20,000 nt of DNA from an uncultured virus (IMG/VR IMGVR_UViG_3300037067_004188) (lineage: Duplodnaviria > Heunggongvirae > Uroviricota > Caudoviricetes). The position numbers and the translations under genes were made by a program. The stretch lies in the IMG/VR virus record IMGVR_UViG_3300037067_004188. One strand, given 5' to 3'. The notes under the pieces were generated by a model. It was not told the DNA's origin. It saw nothing but the letters and a program-made list of their open reading frames with translations, and ran no database searches. The first letter of the stretch is position 1. Every line of letters begins with the position of its first letter. This document shows positions 4,342-11,435 of this stretch, one piece after another.

Positions 4342-5025
4342 TTATTGTTCATCTGGAATCAATAATTTGTCTATTCTATCACGATCTTGCTTGAAAATCA
4401 CTTCATAATCCTTTGACCAAGTCCCATCCTGTTTGGATATAAACGTACCATTCTTCCAACGTGATTCTAAATCTGCCCAATTTACACCTTTCTGATGTAA
4501 CATCTCGTGTATATCAGGAGTCTGCTTATTCTTCATCTGTTTCGCAGAATAATAAACTCTTGCTAACATTTGTAAAGAATTTCGTATCCAATCCGTCTGC
4601 CTCCAGATAAAATAATTGCATACCTCCTCCCTGGGTATATTAAATACCCTAGAATCAAAATATGCACGCTTGCCAAATTTCTCGGTAAATGACACTGAAC
4701 ATACTGAACTGGAAATGGACACCATCTTCTGAATATTATAATCAAACCATGCGTCAGTATTGAACTTCTCATAATCAATTATCAAAATACTGATCTCATC
4801 CGATTGAATATAGGCACATTTAGACCCCTGGACTTCTTTCATTACCTCCAAAGAGGCAAAGTGCATACAATCATTCAGGTTTTTATCAAATGGCTTTTCA
4901 CAGCCCCTAGTCAATGTATGAAACGCCTTGCCATCCAATCGTAGTATAACTGGCGTTCTTCGCATTAAGGACGACTGCGACCTGATCTCATAATTATCCT
5001 TCATCCTGTCCGATAATGATACCAT
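4342..5025 (-). CDS. tRNA(His) guanylyltransferase Thg1-like protein (3'-5' nucleotidyltransferase)
   Basis: Motifs RLDGKAFH, YIQSDEIS, FDSR, YFIWRQxDxxRNS. AAGGAGG RBS at ~5037-5043 puts the start at ATG 5025 (or GTG 5031), not 5103. Confidence 0.93.
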   Translation of the reverse strand: MVSLSDRMKDNYEIRSQSSLMRRTPVILRLDGKAFHTLTRGCEKPFDKNLNDCMHFASLEVMKEVQGSKCAYIQSDEISILIIDYEKFNTDAWFDYNIQKMVSISSSVCSVSFTEKFGKRAYFDSRVFNIPREEVCNYFIWRQTDWIRNSLQMLARVYYSAKQMKNKQTPDIHEMLHQKGVNWADLESRWKNGTFISKQDGTWSKDYEVIFKQDRDRIDKLLIPDEQ

Positions 5026-5045
5026 TTTCACTCTAACCTCCTTTA

Positions 5046-5258
5046 TTAACAAATAACACTGCCATTCTTTTTTATGATCTCTAAGTCCTTTGGCGGTATC
5101 CAATCATACCGACCATCATCGGTCTTGATAATATACCACCCCACAGGCGCATTTAAGGTGCATAATATCAGATTATCGGAAGGTTTTACCTCCCAAAACT
5201 TCTTAATATCACTCCAATTATTACCAGTATAAAGTAAATAGTCTACCATTTTTGCCAT
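5046..5258 (-). CDS. Hypothetical phage protein
   Basis: AAGGA RBS; YTGNN...VGWYIIKTDDG; operon context. Confidence 0.7.
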   Translation of the reverse strand: MAKMVDYLLYTGNNWSDIKKFWEVKPSDNLILCTLNAPVGWYIIKTDDGRYDWIPPKDLEIIKKNGSVIC

Positions 5259-5270
5259 GATATTCCTTTG

Positions 5271-5298
5271 TTGACTTTATCAACAACTGTGGTATAAT
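5271..5298 (+). promoter_or_regulatory. Sigma70-type promoter of wHTH cassette A
   Basis: TTGACT-N16-TATAAT with TGTG extended -10; the inverted repeat ttgttga/tcaacaa (5268-5286) overlaps the -35. Confidence 0.75.
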
Positions 5299-5304
5299 AT
5301 ATCC

Positions 5305-5414
5305 GAGACATAAAGCTAATGTCTCACCTCAACTAATTGTATGGTGACTGGGTAGGGATAACCTCCGATACGAGAATCCAGTTGCCATACTTCCTTATCT
5401 CGTAAAGGAGACCT
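5305..5414 (+). ncRNA. Structured 5' leader A (candidate cis-regulatory RNA)
   Basis: Hairpin gagacat/atgtctc with loop aaagcta; long stem 5339-5351/5378-5390; loop ctcc-ga-tacgaga complementary to tctcgta-aa-ggag (SD). Same layout recurs at 10663-10809. Confidence 0.6.
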
Positions 5415-5723
5415 ATGAAACAGATATACTATAAAACCCCTTCACACCTCATTCATACCGAAGAATATCAAAAATTATCTATACCATCTAAACTACTACT
5501 AAACCACAGCCTGCAATTCTATTATAAAAGCACATTTACATATCCATACTCTACCATTATGAAAGAAACTGGATTCTGCAAATCTGTAACCAAAGACTCA
5601 ATTACTGAACTACTCAAAGAAAAATATTGGTTTCTCGTCTCGGCGGGATCCAGAGGAATCTCTGCTGTATATCGCCATAACCGAGCACTTTTAGAACCTA
5701 ATTATGACCAAATACCGTTCTAA
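5415..5723 (+). CDS. Small winged helix-turn-helix DNA-binding protein (paralogue A)
   Basis: YQKLSIPSKLLL...PYSTIMKETGFCKSVTKDSITELLKEKYW...GSRGISAVYRHN; clearly aligns with 10810..11151. Confidence 0.8.
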   Translation: MKQIYYKTPSHLIHTEEYQKLSIPSKLLLNHSLQFYYKSTFTYPYSTIMKETGFCKSVTKDSITELLKEKYWFLVSAGSRGISAVYRHNRALLEPNYDQIPF

Positions 5724-5744
5724 TTTTAGAAAAATACTATGCCC

Positions 5745-5903
5745 AAAATAACCCTATATGTAGGGTAATCTAATATAATGATATGCATAATGCCAAAAAA
5801 TAACCCTGTATGTAGGGTTATGATACTTTTTGACCCTTTTTCTATATCACGTAAAACCTTGAAAACAAACACTCTATAACCCCATAACCCTATATGTAGG
5901 GTA
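5745..5903. repeat. Three iteron/operator-like palindromes, ACCCT-N6-AGGGT
   Basis: aaaataaccctatatgtagggtaa (5745), aaaataaccctgtatgtagggtta (5797), ataaccctatatgtagggta (5884). Confidence 0.85.
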
Positions 5904-5978
5904 TACTATATACCCCACAACGCCTTGCGATACTTATTGTCCCATCCTTTCTCCATCTTTAACCTCCTTAAAATAAAC

Positions 5979-6149
5979 CTATTGAGGAAAATCTTTACTT
6001 TTTTCCCTTGTCCAACCCTTGTCCACCTTCTCAAGATACTCGTCTATAAGCCTACGAACCAACTCGCCTATACTCTTACCCGTTTCCTTGCTTATCTCAC
6101 GCAACCTCTTTATATCACGCTCTGGTATGTATACCTGCGTCCTGTGCAT
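5979..6149 (-). CDS. Ribbon-helix-helix (CopG/Arc-like) DNA-binding protein
   Basis: MHRTQVYIPERDIKRLREISKETGKSIGELVRRLIDEYL has the RHH strand-helix-G-S-helix pattern. Confidence 0.85.
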   Translation of the reverse strand: MHRTQVYIPERDIKRLREISKETGKSIGELVRRLIDEYLEKVDKGWTREKSKDFPQ

Positions 6150-6161
6150 CAAATTTATCAC

Positions 6162-6587
6162 CTACTTATTATTAACTAAATCTTCCGAAATGCCTAACGA
6201 CTCATTAAAAATATCAAGATTACCCAAATACTTCTCATATTCCCTCTGCGTCTCCTCTATAAGATGTCGGGTTATCTCATGAGCCTCTACAATACGAGAC
6301 TTATCAAGAAATATGTCCAATAAATCAGAATGAAAATCAATACTTTTTTCTATCCATGTGTATTGTCGAAGATACAACCTGAGCAGTTCAGCCCTTTTCC
6401 ACCCATGAACTAATCTAATACATAAGGTATCACAGGTAAAGTATAAAACTATATCCGAATACTTAGTTATACCATAACCAAATCCAGCATTAGTATTCCT
6501 GATTAGCTGATTACCCAACTTGACCAGATCACACCCAAAACTACTCGATAGGAATATGCGCTTTTCATCATCTGTTAGCTGTTCCAT
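6162..6587 (-). CDS. Hypothetical protein
   Basis: GGAGGTG RBS and a promoter immediately upstream. Confidence 0.75.
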   Translation of the reverse strand: MEQLTDDEKRIFLSSSFGCDLVKLGNQLIRNTNAGFGYGITKYSDIVLYFTCDTLCIRLVHGWKRAELLRLYLRQYTWIEKSIDFHSDLLDIFLDKSRIVEAHEITRHLIEETQREYEKYLGNLDIFNESLGISEDLVNNK

Positions 6588-6605
6588 AATATCACCTCCA
6601 TAATA

Positions 6606-6635
6606 ATTATACCACTATCCAATGTATATTGTCAA
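6606..6635 (-). promoter_or_regulatory. Leftward sigma70-type promoter
   Basis: Minus strand TTGACA-N18-TATAAT with TG extension, followed by the GGAGGTG RBS of the 6587 gene. Confidence 0.75.
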
Positions 6636-6813
6636 GCGACTTCTTTGTTGCCAACCTGTAATATGATAGCCTAATTTCTCATTTTTTATGCGGAGGTGTT
6701 CATTAATTACAATCACAACAAGGCGGTGGCATGGGGGTCTGCCCCTCCCGTGTGGAATGTGTGTATGCATAGTCGTGTGCATGTGCGAATCCTTATATGT
6801 AAGGTAGGAATTC

Positions 6814-6893
6814 AGGCATAGGCAAGGCAAGTCTGGTCATATTTCTATCTATGGGCAGGCATAAGTCAACATATTTAAGGCACAAAACAGGCA
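6814..6893. repeat. Cluster of short AGGCA direct repeats in the non-coding divergent region
   Basis: AGGCA at 6814, 6820, 6825, 6857, 6878 and 6889. Confidence 0.55.
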
Positions 6894-6998
6894 TAAACAC
6901 TAATATCCATGCTTATTTGCTCTGCTCTGCATAACTATCATTATGTGGCATTGCGTTATCCTGTCCGCTTCTGGCTCTCTCAGGCTGAAAATAAATAC

Positions 6999-7027
6999 TT
7001 GACAAAAACTTAATATGGGTTTATACT
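6999..7027 (+). promoter_or_regulatory. Strong rightward (early-type) promoter
   Basis: TTGACA-N17-TATACT preceded by an A/T-rich UP-like tract. Confidence 0.85.
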
Positions 7028-7104
7028 GGTTAATAGTGCAAGGGAGCAGACACGGACAAGCTGGATCAGTAGACACACTCACTCACACAGAAGGAGATAA
7101 GGGA

Positions 7105-7287
7105 ATGAATAGCATGTATGATTATCAAGGTTATGAGGCTTTATTAGTGTGGTTAATGAGTATAGGGATAAATGACTGGTTAGAAATAGTATCTCTCATA
7201 GGAGGAGAGGTAGAAGTAGCGGAGTCATGTTTCAGATTGAAAATAAGCGGGTGCAATTCCCGCTCTCACAACAGGTATACTTGCTAA
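7105..7287 (+). CDS. Small hypothetical protein
   Basis: AAGGAG RBS at ~7091 supports ATG 7105 rather than 7015, which lies inside the promoter. Confidence 0.55.
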   Translation: MNSMYDYQGYEALLVWLMSIGINDWLEIVSLIGGEVEVAESCFRLKISGCNSRSHNRYTC

Positions 7288-7302
7288 TAAGGAGATTTAA
7301 TC

Positions 7303-7485
7303 ATGATATTAATAATGGTTCTATTAGTGATAGTTCCGGTGTTTTTAAATGCTTTTGGTAATAGACGACATGATAGGCTTATAAGAGTCTTGCGTCATGA
7401 GTGTATCGAGTCATGGCGTACCTCTCACAAGTTTGGTTACAAGATTTATGAGAGTTATAACTTGTCAGTAATCTATACCAGATAA
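7303..7485 (+). CDS. Small membrane-anchored protein
   Basis: AAGGAG RBS; hydrophobic N-terminus MILIMVLLVIVPVFL. Confidence 0.65.
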   Translation: MILIMVLLVIVPVFLNAFGNRRHDRLIRVLRHECIESWRTSHKFGYKIYESYNLSVIYTR

Positions 7486-7497
7486 GGAGTTTACGAC

Positions 7498-7668
7498 ATG
7501 GAATTAAAAACAAAATGGGTTTGTCCGGGTTGTAAGAAAAGGAATGTTTTAATCTCGTCTCTTGATAAGTTGGGAATCCCAACGGTCAAGAGCGGGTCAA
7601 AGTGTATTTGTGGAGTGGATCGTTATTCAGACAGATATTATCAGCTTAAATTAAAGTCAGCGAAGTAG
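7498..7668 (+). CDS. Small Zn-ribbon-like protein (56 aa)
   Basis: AAGGAG RBS; MELKTKWVCPGCKKRN...KCICG; absent from the ORF track. Confidence 0.7.
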   Translation: MELKTKWVCPGCKKRNVLISSLDKLGIPTVKSGSKCICGVDRYSDRYYQLKLKSAK

Positions 7669-7731
7669 TAATTAGGGTTGAATCTCTACCATGTCTATCA
7701 AAATAGTAGAGATTGATTAAGGGGGTTTATC

Positions 7732-7968
7732 ATGTATATATCGAAGTCACTTAGGGACGCATTTAGCGAAAAGATAGATGCTATTAATGAATTGATGAGT
7801 CATACAGTAATGAAAATAGTAATGAAGATAGAAAATAATCCAGAAAACAGCGATCAGTTTCGTATTGCTCTAGCTGGTGGTGTGTCTGAATGGATCAGTA
7901 GATCAGAGTTAGAGGACAGGACAGACAATATTTTGTTAGCATTGAGAAATGGGACAATCGAGTTATAA
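7732..7968 (+). CDS. Hypothetical protein
   Basis: GGGGG RBS; operon context. Confidence 0.7.
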   Translation: MYISKSLRDAFSEKIDAINELMSHTVMKIVMKIENNPENSDQFRIALAGGVSEWISRSELEDRTDNILLALRNGTIEL

Positions 7969-8012
7969 CAATCATAGTGCTGGCTATCACGTTAAACTGG
8001 CTGGAGGTAATC

Positions 8013-8207
8013 ATGGCAAAAGTAAAGTATTTATCAGTCAAACATCCAGAGGCAATAAAGTTGCACGATTGCCCATCATTTAGTGCGACAGGAAGCATTA
8101 AGGGCATGAAAGATAAGTTTTATGGTAGAGATGCCCTTCTGGTAAGGTCAGGGAGTTACATTTATAATGTCAGTGGTTGTCCTGAGTTATACGAATTAGC
8201 ACATTAG
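8013..8207 (+). CDS. Small hypothetical phage protein
   Basis: GGAGGT RBS supports ATG 8013; contains TGSIKGMK..FYG..ALLVRSGSYIYNV. Confidence 0.75.
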   Translation: MAKVKYLSVKHPEAIKLHDCPSFSATGSIKGMKDKFYGRDALLVRSGSYIYNVSGCPELYELAH

Positions 8208-8250
8208 TTCTAATATCCTGAGCAAGATGTAAAAAGGCTTAGGGGATAAA

Positions 8251-8487
8251 ATGATCAAAGCATCTGAACTTAGAAAAAACATTGATTTCAAAGTGTTGGC
8301 AAGAAAAGACGGTCAGTTACTTATGGATAACTATAAAGATGAAGAAGCGCAGTTATGGCAGATCAACAGGAAAAGATCGACTGGTGTTCTTGAATATGGG
8401 AATACATCTTATGAGTTTATCAGACATGCCCTAAAAGAAGATTTTGAGTTTTTTGGCGTTCTTGATATGAGACCTTTAAGGGCATAG
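8251..8487 (+). CDS. Hypothetical protein
   Basis: AGGGGA RBS; operon context. Confidence 0.7.
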   Translation: MIKASELRKNIDFKVLARKDGQLLMDNYKDEEAQLWQINRKRSTGVLEYGNTSYEFIRHALKEDFEFFGVLDMRPLRA

Positions 8488-8569
8488 TGTGACGGCGCAG
8501 TAATGCGCCTGTGCGGTATAGGCAATAACGCCCTAGTCCGACTGTAAACACAAACAAGGAGTTAAGACA

Positions 8570-8863
8570 ATGGGAAACACAAAGCTAAATCAAGTTAGTA
8601 TTGGGAATTATGGCAATTACTCAAGTGACAATTACGGTTCAAGTCGTTACGTCACAATCGGCAGTCTAACGTTATATTTTTCATATAAGACGGTGATTGC
8701 ATTTGAGAATATAAGCGGTTTAACTATATGCCAAAATGACTGGGGAACTACGACAGGCAAGCACTTAAACTCAATAAGTACAGACAAATCAAAGCGTATT
8801 CCCTATGCACAGTTTAAGGAATTGCTAGACAAGGTGTTAGAGATTCACGGCTTAGCCATATAA
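8570..8863 (+). CDS. Hypothetical phage protein (YFSYxTxIA...WxxTTGKHLN type)
   Basis: AAGGAG RBS; the motif resembles small uncharacterised phage early-region proteins as recalled, not searched. Confidence 0.75.
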   Translation: MGNTKLNQVSIGNYGNYSSDNYGSSRYVTIGSLTLYFSYKTVIAFENISGLTICQNDWGTTTGKHLNSISTDKSKRIPYAQFKELLDKVLEIHGLAI

Positions 8864-8915
8864 GACGAAACCCGCTCCGGCGGGTCGGCTGTTAATTGAC
8901 AGTCTTGATAAGTCT
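8863..8915 (+). ncRNA. Type II hammerhead ribozyme, U3-A8 core variant; predicted cleavage after GUC at C8886
   Basis: agac-GAAA-cccgc(uccg)gcggg-UC-ggcuguu(aauu)gacaguc-UUGAUAA-gucu: stems I, II and III all form, and the core matches apart from the compensatory C3U/G8A change. Confidence 0.88.
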
Positions 8916-8934
8916 GAATCAACGGAGGTGTAAC

Positions 8935-9165
8935 ATGATAGTTAAAGATTTGCAGAATTTACTTGAAAACAAGCCTGATGATATGGTTATCAAATTACTT
9001 TCATGGACTAACGATCATGATCCAGAATATAAATTTATTGATCCTGACATTTCAACACAGCTTGTATCTTTAGACATGGACACTGTAACGTCAGATAAAG
9101 ACCACGCTGATCCAGAATTTGACGATTTGTATTCAGATGAGCAAGAAGTTTTATTAATAGCATAA
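8935..9165 (+). CDS. Small acidic hypothetical protein
   Basis: GGAGGTG RBS supports ATG 8935; MIVKDLQNLLENKPDDM start and a D/E-rich C-terminus. Confidence 0.75.
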   Translation: MIVKDLQNLLENKPDDMVIKLLSWTNDHDPEYKFIDPDISTQLVSLDMDTVTSDKDHADPEFDDLYSDEQEVLLIA

Positions 9166-9177
9166 CGGAGGTGTGCA

Positions 9178-9477
9178 ATGTTTGTTTTATGGCTAAATGC
9201 AAGCGGGCATAAGGCAAAGGATATACCAGAGCTACGGCAGACCTTATTAAGTCTGAGCAGTCAGATATTTGAGAAGTGCGTAAAATCCTACATAACCGTT
9301 GAGCAGTCTGATGGTTACGTTGGTGAGCATATCTTTGACACTAAAGCTGTTCGGAACATGGTGCATACTATTTCAAAGATAGATTCAGACATGGCGACTA
9401 TTGCGGAATGTGCTGAGTTATGCAATCAGTTTGCGATACTGAGAGCAAACAATAAGGAGGAATCCAGGCAATGTTAG
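9178..9477 (+). CDS. Hypothetical protein
   Basis: GGAGGTG RBS. Confidence 0.7.
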   Translation: MFVLWLNASGHKAKDIPELRQTLLSLSSQIFEKCVKSYITVEQSDGYVGEHIFDTKAVRNMVHTISKIDSDMATIAECAELCNQFAILRANNKEESRQC

Positions 9478-9818
9478 ACAAAAAAAATTTCATTAAAAAG
9501 GTAAATGATTTGGGTTCCCTTATAGGTTTTTCGGTTGAGGACACATCAATAGAAAACTACATAAATTCTGCTATTCTAAGAAATAAAGGTACAAGACAGG
9601 AGATTCACGTTTTTAACGGTCATTATGGCAAGGAAAACAAAATCTCTATACAGGGTGAATTATCAGGAATAAAGATAAATGAGTTACTACCGTGTATCCA
9701 CATAGCCGAAACAAAAACAGCAGAGCAGATCAAGAAAGACATTGATCGTCATTTAATGCCAAGCTACATGCTTATATTAAAGAAGGCTTTAGCGGATCAG
9801 CGAAAGGTTAGCGAATGA
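9471..9818 (+). CDS. Hypothetical protein
   Basis: AAGGAGG RBS; coupled to the upstream gene. Confidence 0.7.
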   Translation: MLDKKNFIKKVNDLGSLIGFSVEDTSIENYINSAILRNKGTRQEIHVFNGHYGKENKISIQGELSGIKINELLPCIHIAETKTAEQIKKDIDRHLMPSYMLILKKALADQRKVSE

Positions 9819-10096
9819 ACGGACTAAATGAATCACTAAGAGCATGTCAAACTAATCCTTCTGAATCTAACCTTGACGTTCTTGATGGGTTATTAAAGTC
9901 AGGGCATGGGTTACGGATAACGTATAAACCAGAGCAAATGAAATATCTGGACAAGCGAAACAGTGATCGCAATTCGATTCGTAATTATTCAGGGATTAGC
10001 AAGACAAAGAGCGTCTTTTGGCTGTGTTATTGTACAGGAATGTTTTTAGAATATCGGATGATGGTTGATATTCAAGCGATAAAGGATATAAAATAA
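9815..10096 (+). CDS. Hypothetical protein
   Basis: ATGA overlap with the upstream stop. Confidence 0.65.
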   Translation: MNGLNESLRACQTNPSESNLDVLDGLLKSGHGLRITYKPEQMKYLDKRNSDRNSIRNYSGISKTKSVFWLCYCTGMFLEYRMMVDIQAIKDIK

Positions 10097-10106
10097 CAGA
10101 GGTGCA

Positions 10107-10334
10107 ATGATGACCGAAGAGACGAAACGTTTAATCAAAGAGAATGTTGAGGTATTCAAGCTAGAGGAGTTTATAAGTGTGTGCGCGTGGTGTGGCAAAT
10201 GGCGTTCAGGTGATAATTGGTTCAATGCGCCTATTCCAAAAGGTAAGAGATCGCATGGGATATGTCCAGATTGTTATAAGAAATTCAATGCTGGCGTTCC
10301 TTATGATGAGGTGACAAAAACATGGCTAAAGTAA
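10107..10334 (+). CDS. Small Zn-binding protein
   Basis: GAGGTG RBS; VCAWCGK...SHGICPDC motif. Confidence 0.75.
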   Translation: MMTEETKRLIKENVEVFKLEEFISVCAWCGKWRSGDNWFNAPIPKGKRSHGICPDCYKKFNAGVPYDEVTKTWLK

Positions 10335-10525
10335 TTTTCAATGTTGGAGATCAAGTTTATGTTGTTTCTATTGGTATGACGGCGATCGTACTGTCAAGGG
10401 CAGGCGATCAATACAGGATTAAGCGTGCAGATGGTAAGTTTGACTATGTGATGTCTAACGGTCTGGTGAGGTGTAAAAATGAATCACAGACACAGAAAAT
10501 CAACGAGGAGGCAGCGCAGGCGTAA
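10322..10525 (+). CDS. Small SH3/KOW-like beta-barrel protein
   Basis: GAGGTG RBS; FNVGDQVYV...AIVL...YRIKRADG pattern. Confidence 0.6.
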   Translation: MAKVIFNVGDQVYVVSIGMTAIVLSRAGDQYRIKRADGKFDYVMSNGLVRCKNESQTQKINEEAAQA

Positions 10526-10625
10526 GGTCAGGCGTTCCCTTCCCCTTATGCTTGCATGGGTAACAATCTTTATAGAGTGCTGGAAGCGTAATAACAGGCA
10601 GAGATGCCGAAAGGTCAGAAAATAG
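10479..10625 (+). CDS. Arginine-rich small peptide (48 aa)
   Basis: GAGGTG RBS just upstream; MNHRHRKSTRRQRRRKVRRSLPLMLAWVTIFIECWKRNNRQRCRKVRK; ends just before the cassette B promoter. Confidence 0.5.
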   Translation: MNHRHRKSTRRQRRRKVRRSLPLMLAWVTIFIECWKRNNRQRCRKVRK

Positions 10626-10628
10626 CCC

Positions 10629-10658
10629 TTGACGTGGGCGTTCTCTTTGTGGTAATAT
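10629..10658 (+). promoter_or_regulatory. Sigma70-type promoter of wHTH cassette B
   Basis: TTGACG-N18-TAATAT with the same TGTGG extended -10 as cassette A. Confidence 0.6.
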
Positions 10659-10662
10659 GGAT

Positions 10663-10809
10663 GTGTCAGCGGTTGAGCATTTAGCTAGTGCTGAACCATC
10701 AAGCTGGCACAACCATTTGTGTGATGTTATGTGGGATAATCTCCCCCAGAGATAACTCCGATTGGTAGACATAGCATCACACATCCTTACTACCAAAGAG
10801 GAGAACGCC
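10663..10809 (+). ncRNA. Structured 5' leader B (candidate cis-regulatory RNA)
   Basis: Hairpin with loop ttagcta; 15-bp stem 10718-10732/10769-10783; loop ctcc-ga-ttggtag complementary to ctaccaa-aga-ggag (SD). Confidence 0.6.
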
Positions 10810-11151
10810 ATGAGACCACCAAAAAAGCACGTCAAGCAATTTCTAAGACTTTCACACGAATTAGTCAAATCAGAACGTTACAACAATTTATCACATCCAG
10901 CTATAATCATTCTAAATTATAGTATGATTTTCTATTACGACAATGATCCTTTTCATCCTTTTAGCTTGCCATATTCAGAAATAAAAAGCGTTTTGCATAT
11001 CGGCAAGACAACAATAGCGAAAGCAATCAAACAATTAATAGATGGCAAATACTGGATTTTAATTAATAAAGGTGGGCGAAATAGGTCAGCTATTTATCGC
11101 CATAACCATTCATTATTGAGCGTTTATGAAGAATCCACAAGTCCTGTTTAG
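10810..11151 (+). CDS. Small winged helix-turn-helix DNA-binding protein (paralogue B)
   Basis: GAGGAG RBS supports ATG 10810; YNNLSHPAIIILNYS..FYY...PYSEIKSVLHIGKTTIAKAIKQLIDGKYW...GGRNRSAIYRHN. Confidence 0.8.
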   Translation: MRPPKKHVKQFLRLSHELVKSERYNNLSHPAIIILNYSMIFYYDNDPFHPFSLPYSEIKSVLHIGKTTIAKAIKQLIDGKYWILINKGGRNRSAIYRHNHSLLSVYEESTSPV

Positions 11152-11229
11152 GACTAATCAGAGACGTAATAAGTCCTGTTCTGGACTAAAGAATGACTGT
11201 TTTTGGGGTCATTAGTCCTGTTCTGGACT
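11140..11229. repeat. Three iteron/operator-like palindromes, AGTCC-N6-GGACT
   Basis: agtcctgtttaggact (11140), agtcctgttctggact (11172 and 11214). Confidence 0.85.
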
Positions 11230-11435
11230 GTTCCTATGTACTAGACTATTTCCTATACTTTAAGGTATGTTTGATTAACTATAATTCTTTTGTAAAGCCA
11301 CAAAAGAATCAAAAAGGCTGTCTTCTCTACGTCTAAAGCCAAGCAGGATAGCTTATAGCGGGGGCAATATCTATCAATTAGGTGAGCCTGTGGCTATTTG
11401 ACCTCTTTAGACTGCGAGAATGAGTTAAAGAGCAA

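Follow-up and report, generated by a model that had tools for sequence, protein, structure and literature searches.

In the C4 RNAs of phages P1 and P7 and the CI RNA of phage P4, a sense-encoded regulator lies upstream of its own target, exposes loop bases complementary to the ribosome-binding site (RBS) region of the next gene and is cut out by RNase P as a stable small RNA, and its specificity shifts among relatives through matched changes in regulator and target. In the rep leaders of IncI-alpha, IncB and IncL/M plasmids, a hairpin loop pairs in cis just 5' of the Shine-Dalgarno sequence (SD) of rep; the resulting pseudoknot, which a counter-transcribed Inc RNA blocks, activates translation and requires that a leader peptide be translated. 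SAM-II and preQ1-II are riboswitches with an SD-sequestering pseudoknot, in which a hairpin loop pairs with an SD-containing 3' tail and unpaired loop nucleotides are conserved. Type I toxin mRNAs such as tisB and dinQ are rendered translationally inert as primary transcripts by intramolecular structure; they depend on processing or standby sites, and a separate antitoxin sRNA base-pairs with them. In the rep leader of pSK41-type RepA_N plasmids, according to a review, translation of the initiator is governed by an RBS-sequestering stem-loop that is induced by a counter-transcript of ~83 nt binding ~100 nt upstream, such RNA control not having been seen, according to the same review, in RepA_N plasmids outside staphylococci (PMC5703833).

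The window that we analysed, a 20,000-nt stretch of DNA from an uncultured virus of the Caudoviricetes (IMG/VR record IMGVR_UViG_3300037067_004188), carries two winged-helix genes, A and B, each preceded by a leader with a hairpin loop complementary to the RBS region of the gene that follows. These leaders resemble C4 and CI in the sense orientation of the presumed regulator ahead of its target, with which it would be co-transcribed from a single promoter, in the exposed complementary loop and in the matched changes among relatives. Unlike C4, they contain one bipartite site (address plus SD) instead of two separate ones, show no similarity to the Rfam C4 model (none at E<=10) and precede a gene for a possibly RepA_N-like winged-helix protein. 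They share with the IncI-alpha/IncB/IncL/M leaders a loop able to pair in cis just 5' of the SD, but have a colinear anti-SD, and neither a conserved leader ORF nor an antisense promoter was found here. The likeness to SAM-II and preQ1-II lies in the pairing of loop and tail and in the conserved loop nucleotides, whereas the pseudoknot helix is hypervariable in sequence, the gene context is non-metabolic and Rfam gives no match. With the pSK41-type leader they have in common a predicted RBS-sequestering structure ahead of a gene that may be of the RepA_N type, but no counter-transcript is evident here and the structures are unrelated. Gene class and fold likewise set them apart from tisB and dinQ.

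The initial annotation had proposed the leaders as a candidate new cis-regulatory RNA motif, and that proposal withstood comparison with Rfam, the C4 family included. The 20-kb window gave no match at gathering score; at E<=10 there was none on leader A and, near B, an unrelated ToxI at E 9.1; the leaders of contigs L002-L004 gave no relevant family at E<=5, and none of the Rfam riboswitch covariance models matched the leaders. Because nothing in Rfam matched, the leaders are not members of the C4 family, though they may work like one. In the searchable literature, 12-nt motif strings occurred only in unrelated primer-type papers, and no description of such a leader was found. We conclude that the motif has not been described before in the searchable literature; the kind of regulation, RBS masking, is already known. 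If confirmed, it would be a new compact RNA motif among the few cis-encoded RBS-masking elements, and it would connect putative RepA_N-like origin-binding modules of phages to a form of RNA control not previously described for them.

Leaders A and B and their relatives

Leader A (5305-5414, plus strand) is preceded by a TG-extended promoter at 5271..5298 (TTGACT, 16-nt spacer, TATAAT; 11/12 consensus matches). Judged by spacing, transcription would start ~7 nt past the promoter, near 5305, and the leader ends at the ATG at 5415. It opens with a 5'-terminal hairpin, P1 (5305..5325; 7 bp, loop AAAGCUA), followed by a second hairpin, P2 (5339..5390), with a stem of 13 bp (5339-5351/5378-5390) plus closing G-U and U-A pairs. 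The P2 loop (5352-5377) contains GGGAUAACCUCC and holds the predicted anti-RBS segment (5363..5375), which consists of the anti-SD CUCC (5363-5366), GAU and a 7-nt address, UACGAGA (5369-5375). The tail (5391..5414) is made up of the linker UUCCUUA (5391-5397), the target UCUCGUA (5398-5404) and the SD GGAG (5407-5410) ahead of the start codon. A repeat finder independently returned CTCCGATACGAGA (5363-5375) against TCTCGTAAAGGAG (5398-5410), as well as the P2 stems of A and B.

Leader B (10663-10809, plus strand), which ends at the start codon ATG at 10810, has a weaker promoter at 10629..10658 (TTGACG, 18-nt spacer, TAATAT, TG-extended; 9/12 matches). Its P1 (10663..10710) is a nested hairpin with an apical UUAGCUA (10681-10687), and its P2 (10718..10783) has a 15-nt stem that is 93% complementary (10718-10732/10769-10783). 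Within the P2 loop a closed mini-hairpin, GGGAUAAUCUCCC, occupies 10733-10745, and a second GAUAAC block supplies the CUCC of the anti-RBS segment (10756..10768), comprising CUCC (10756-10759), GA and the address UUGGUAG (10762-10768). The tail (10784..10809) carries the linker UCCUUA, the target CUACCAA (10790-10796) and the SD GGAG (10800-10803).

Most of what had initially been read from these two leaders is borne out. Their P2 stems, described as 13-15 bp of unrelated sequence, are indeed of this kind, and the loop segments said to be complementary to the pre-RBS region are perfect complements of it (5369-75/5398-404 and 10762-68/10790-96), with CUCC facing GGAG. Two further claims hold for A and B but not for the family as a whole. 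The hairpin with a 7-nt NNAGCUA loop exists in both, although the minimum-free-energy fold closes that of B to a 5-nt loop, but P1 with an AGCUA-containing loop is found in only three of the six leaders described below (A, B and L002) and is absent from L003a, L004 and L003b. Similarly, UCCUUA after the stem is exact in A and B only; the equivalents in relatives are UCUUGU, UCUUUA and CCUUUG, so that the conserved feature is a pyrimidine tract of 7-8 nt, not a fixed word.

Two side observations concern P1 and the promoter region. The apical P1 loop of B (10681-10687) and that of L002 (~367-375) contain the 6-nt palindrome UAGCUA, reduced to AGCU in A; loop-loop self-pairing of two leaders on this basis is speculative. 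In B, a 22-nt stretch spanning the -10 box and the transcript start (10645-10666) shows 82% complementarity to the 3' end of P2, linker and target (10779-10800), and L002 has a 15-nt pair that is 80% complementary (307-321 vs 469-483) at a different position relative to the promoter. Such pairing could matter when transcription reads through from genes further upstream, or may be due to chance.

Relatives were sought by protein in metagenome contigs and by RNA-motif seeds in viral contigs. The protein search revealed winged-helix homologues on four metagenome contigs besides the window's own, and the same type of leader lies upstream of every homologue on them. Since the leader of L005 is identical to that of L004, this adds four leaders and gives six distinct ones including A and B, which fall into an A-like lineage (A, L003a, L004, L003b) and a B-like lineage (B, L002); the family is thus tiny. 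Word search found four protein relatives, and there were 31 representatives at E<=1e-3 but just seven at E<=1e-10. No match resulted from megablast of 5000-11300 and tblastn of the gene B product (P0002) against phage records, and protein-seeded scans of viral contigs and genome contigs returned no relatives. In viral contigs, the DNA seed TAGGGATAAYCTCCG hit 45 loci, each of which lacked the motif when inspected, and none of the 91 loci hit by GGTAGGGATAAYCTCC (20) and AACTCCGATN{0,1}GGTAGA (71) scored above 16 bits with model R1. A covariance model built from P2 alone of the four A-like leaders, the kind of check that had been called for at the outset, scores leader B at 30.1 bits (E 2e-5) and that of L002 at 14.9 bits; it found no third leader copy within the window.

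Contig L003 carries, at 1716-1950 and straight after its first module, a second complete leader (address UGAAGGA) ahead of a winged-helix ORF, a truncated paralogue, that stops after 42 codons. Tandem modules are therefore possible; the second copy may be decayed or mis-assembled. In the first leader of this contig, L003a, an out-of-frame AUG-UAA start-stop (1155-1160) lies between the SD and the main AUG.

Shared anatomy, folding and covariation

From 5' to 3', the motif consists of an optional P1, an A/C-rich linker, P2, the pyrimidine linker, the target, the SD and the AUG. P2 has a stem of 13-16 bp and a loop of 22-38 nt. The loop block that the initial annotation had noticed as common to A and B is invariant as GGGATAA.CT.C in 6/6 leaders (GGGAUAA-Y-CUCC in RNA); B-like loops are longer, and the block of L002 is rearranged similarly to that of B. 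The address, 7-8 nt long and lineage-specific, begins 1-3 nt after CUCC and is followed directly by the 3' strand of P2. After the target come 1-3 nt, the SD GGAG (GGAA in L003b), 4-8 nt and the AUG. All six address/target pairs are perfect complements and all are different: UACGAGA/UCUCGUA, UUGGUAG/CUACCAA, UGGUAGA/UCUACCA, UGGAAGA/UCUUCCA, CUGAAGA/UCUUCAG and UGAAGGA/UCCUUCA. The two arms are 21-26 nt apart within each leader, and the helix of 7-8 bp that they would form ends 1-3 nt before the SD in every case.

Both leaders of the window are predicted to fold well beyond expectation, A at -36.8 kcal/mol (z -3.76) and B at -56.2 kcal/mol (z -5.78), with 0/200 dinucleotide shuffles as good in either case. 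The P2 of A-like leaders prefers the sense strand (A: -22.3 kcal/mol, z -4.07, on the plus strand vs -15.6, z -2.25, on the minus strand; L004: -22.6, z -4.3, vs -9.0, z -0.26), whereas in B-like leaders, with the P2 of B at -26.4 kcal/mol (z -5.08), both strands are about equal. The tail contains a weak local hairpin, P3 (-2.4 to -4.6 kcal/mol; -4.6 in leader A), in which the pyrimidine linker is paired with the SD and the target 7-mer lies in a loop of 8-10 nt. In addition, A, B and the A-like leaders allow a mini-hairpin in which GGG or GAG pairs with CUC.

Covariation was counted with a MAFFT alignment of the four A-like leaders (A6). In the address helix, 28/28 cells are paired and 5/7 pairs have changed on both sides; P2 is paired in 98.3% of cells with 6/15 pairs compensatory, and CUCC:GGAG in 15/16 cells with 0/4 pairs changed on both sides; as four related sequences are few, these numbers show consistency and not probability. 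All five summary measures were matched by 0/500 shuffles, with partner-slid controls 35-46% paired, a statistic that overstates independence because three of the A-like leaders are >80% identical. B and L002 form an independent lineage, in which the P2 sequences are wholly different and the address helix is slid by one position. P3 is 88.9% paired and shows no compensatory change. An alternative pairing of GGGAUAA with UUAUCUN, 92.9% paired in the A-like leaders and likewise without compensatory change, was rejected as the main structure, since by eye it is not formable in B, and is kept as a possible alternate state.

The claim that different sequence with preserved pairing indicates selection on structure, originally made from A and B, is thus supported beyond what two copies could tell, by six distinct leaders and by the complete pairing and compensatory changes of the address helix in the four A-like ones. 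That the leaders are real as a conserved RNA structure is something of which we are highly confident.

Proposed RBS masking and competing readings

The following model would account for the arrangement. A sigma-70 promoter, near-consensus in the case of A, would yield a leader RNA of ~100-150 nt, in which P2 would display a large loop with the invariant GGGAUAA-Y-CUCC, the CUCC serving as an anti-Shine-Dalgarno. The address would pair with the target just 5' of the SD and CUCC would pair with GGAG; since the complement of the address adjoins the SD and CUCC is colinear with the address, loop and tail can form a bipartite helix of 12-14 nt, either as a pseudoknot or by a kiss between the P2 loop and the weak, SD-containing P3. 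With the SD thus occluded, translation of the putative RepA_N-like origin-binding protein would be low or gated, and GGGAUAA, which could mask CUCC in the mini-hairpin, might be where a factor binds or a folding switch operates. To judge from the sequences, a conserved anti-SD colinear with a covarying address, opposite target and SD, is best explained by RBS masking. On balance, we lean towards the leaders being cis-acting translation-off structures, whether by pseudoknot or by P2-loop/P3-loop kiss; that the pairing occurs in vivo, represses rather than activates and acts in cis is what we infer from the predicted structures.

The predicted energies bear on this model in both directions. Cognate loop:tail duplexes reach -14.8 to -22.1 kcal/mol (z -2.35 to -4.62), compared with -6.0 to -11.5 when the loops are shuffled, and the central SD bases (G, A) have an unpaired probability <=0.15 in 6/6 leaders in the nested ensemble, that is, already without pseudoknots. 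On the other hand, a nested alternative in which P2 is opened and the anti-RBS helix is forced costs 0 to 7.4 kcal/mol. An H-type pseudoknot would be sterically tight, as a linker of 7-8 nt must span the 13-16 bp of P2. Also against cis masking are the invariant GGGAUAA, which SD masking leaves unexplained, the need of a constitutively masked SD for a release mechanism and the precedent of IncI/IncB plasmids, where pseudoknots just 5' of the rep SD act as activators.

In consensus scans, the leaders of A, L002 and L003 and the sequence directly behind them were free of minus-strand promoters; the single candidate in B lies 100 nt into the gene and is not shared by L002. Across the six leaders, no potential leader-peptide ORF with an SD-like sequence recurs at an equivalent position. 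Together, the lack of a minus-strand leader promoter and of a conserved leader ORF favours an autonomous cis element, and it counts against an activator pseudoknot of the IncI-alpha/IncB kind, in which P3 would mask the SD by default and pairing of the P2 loop would open or remodel the RBS. Such activation would suit a target that directly precedes the SD of a gene resembling replication initiators and a conserved, 88.9% paired P3, but P3 is weak and does not covary, and the conserved CUCC, being colinear with the address, would itself pair with the SD; we consider activation very improbable. A switch gated by a ligand or protein is improbable too, if to a slightly lesser degree. Here GGGAUAA-Y-CUCC would bind a metabolite, the winged-helix protein or the neighbouring ribbon-helix-helix (RHH) protein, and binding would decide between an ON state, in which the mini-hairpin hides CUCC, and an OFF state, in which CUCC is available to the SD. 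The mini-hairpin can form in A, B and the A-like leaders, and invariant loop nucleotides beside covarying helices, with the SD in a predicted pseudoknot, are what SD-sequestering pseudoknot riboswitches display; against this, no riboswitch family matches, a phage replication-type gene is not an obvious riboswitch target and B and L002 have the block in duplicated or rearranged form.

We rank above these two a sense-encoded riboregulator acting in trans in the manner of P1 C4 and P4 CI, although we regard this, too, as unlikely. Once freed, whether through processing or because some transcripts end at the U-rich tract, P1-P2 would accumulate, and its address and CUCC would pair with the RBS in freshly made transcripts of its own module, providing replicon-specific negative feedback or immunity, with the different addresses keeping A and B orthogonal. 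The presumed regulator does precede its target on what would be a single transcript and has a loop complementary to the RBS region, the target 7-mer in the 8-10 nt P3 loop is a typical kissing target, an interaction between molecules removes the steric problem of the short linker and a pyrimidine/U-rich tract follows P2 in 5/6 leaders. Yet neither Rfam C4 nor any other family matches, ARAGORN reports no tRNA-like element, and no canonical terminator follows P2. The two modules of this one genome differ in address, and the loop of A with the tail of B gives just -7.6 kcal/mol, but the loop of B with the tail of A gives -16.0 kcal/mol, and the cross-specificity matrix of loops and tails, in which the automatic rule mis-assigned the loop of L002, reveals no clean orthogonality; the divergence of addresses would, moreover, be equally expected from neutral compensatory drift of a cis helix. 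The corresponding view of P2 as a modular riboregulator, released and trans-acting, with CUCC as a constant anti-SD 'effector' joined to a freely evolvable 7-8 nt 'address', is accordingly doubtful to the same extent. Should the trans reading be true, each module, made up of a rep-like gene and three cognate palindromes, would have copy control or immunity through an RNA of its own, two or more such modules could function orthogonally within one phage, and the leaders would be a sense-encoded functional analogue of P1 C4/P4 CI with no sequence relation to them. The least credible reading, to which we give hardly any weight, operates at the DNA level: address and complement would be half-sites of an inverted-repeat operator that co-vary with the specificity of a dimeric protein. 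The address helix consists of Watson-Crick pairs only and, being devoid of G-U pairs, is by itself indistinguishable from a DNA inverted repeat, and its arms keep a fixed spacing of 21-26 bp. They are, however, colinear with CUCC/GGAG and sit within a hairpin that has invariant G-U pairs and, in A-like leaders, folds on the sense strand only; the purine/pyrimidine asymmetry of the strands fits RNA, and the proteins have their own, different palindromes downstream.

The layout of a fixed anti-SD with a short variable address and a matched target would correspond in nature to the cis-repressed and toehold riboregulators of synthetic design, and the leaders, if confirmed, could supply orthogonal riboregulator parts. 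They would also allow one to test how a single genome accommodates two paralogous replicon-like modules.

The downstream genes and their surroundings

Gene A (5415..5723, plus strand) encodes a 102-aa winged-helix protein, P0001, and gene B (10810..11151, plus strand) a 113-aa winged-helix protein with a possibly RepA_N-like predicted fold, P0002; the two are paralogues (40% identity, E 2e-21). PHROGs has no family for either. P0002 matches Pfam RepA_N at 20 bits, below the gathering cut-off of 30, and across 16 family members the Pfam matches are weak and sub-threshold (HTH_36 in 9/16, RepA_N in 3/16, Rep3_N in 2/16 and Phage_rep_O in 1/16). With an AF2 model (pLDDT 84.6), the top eight Foldseek matches in the PDB are RepA_N N-domains (4pql, 4pt7, 5kbj, 4pta; E 4.7e-4 to 4.2e-3, TM 0.52-0.59), with winged-helix domains of the MarR/ArsR type close behind.

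Each winged-helix gene is associated with three palindromes of 14-16 bp, whose sequence changes with the type of protein. After gene A there are three copies of CCCTRYATRYAGGG (5752-65, 5804-17 and 5888-5901; 3 found vs 0.03 expected), and after gene B three of AGTCCTGTTYWGGACT (11140-55, 11172-87 and 11214-29). L002 has three GTTCTATWYAGAAC palindromes at the corresponding place (~836-925), and an arrangement like that of gene A recurs in L003 (~1470-1630) and L004 (~680-830). Conserved non-coding sequence lies between and after the palindromes, and a conserved AT-rich stretch follows. The CCCTRYATRYAGGG palindromes are putative binding sites of protein A, and the arrays look like iterons, an origin or a centromere-like site; gene and palindromes together would constitute a small replicon-like or origin-binding module.

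The context of these modules is phage-like and includes an HNH endonuclease, a DNA methylase, a Thg1-like enzyme and a Cas4-like nuclease, as well as a terminase-like fragment beside L003. The Thg1-like tRNA-His guanylyltransferase gene lies at 4342-5103 on the minus strand of the window (Pfam E 6e-26; phrog_4717 E 8e-76), yet ARAGORN finds no tRNA gene in the window. A gene of the CopG family of RHH proteins (RHH_1, E 3e-9 and 5e-11) adjoins the A-type module both in the window (5979-6161, minus strand) and in L004 (2-166, minus strand), its orientation to the module being convergent in the former and divergent in the latter. Further downstream, divergent sigma-70 promoters at 6606-6635 (minus strand, 12/12) and 6999-7027 (plus strand, 11/12) flank a gap of ~370 bp, which may be a switch region; the leftward promoter drives the RHH gene together with a 141-aa ORF of no known family.
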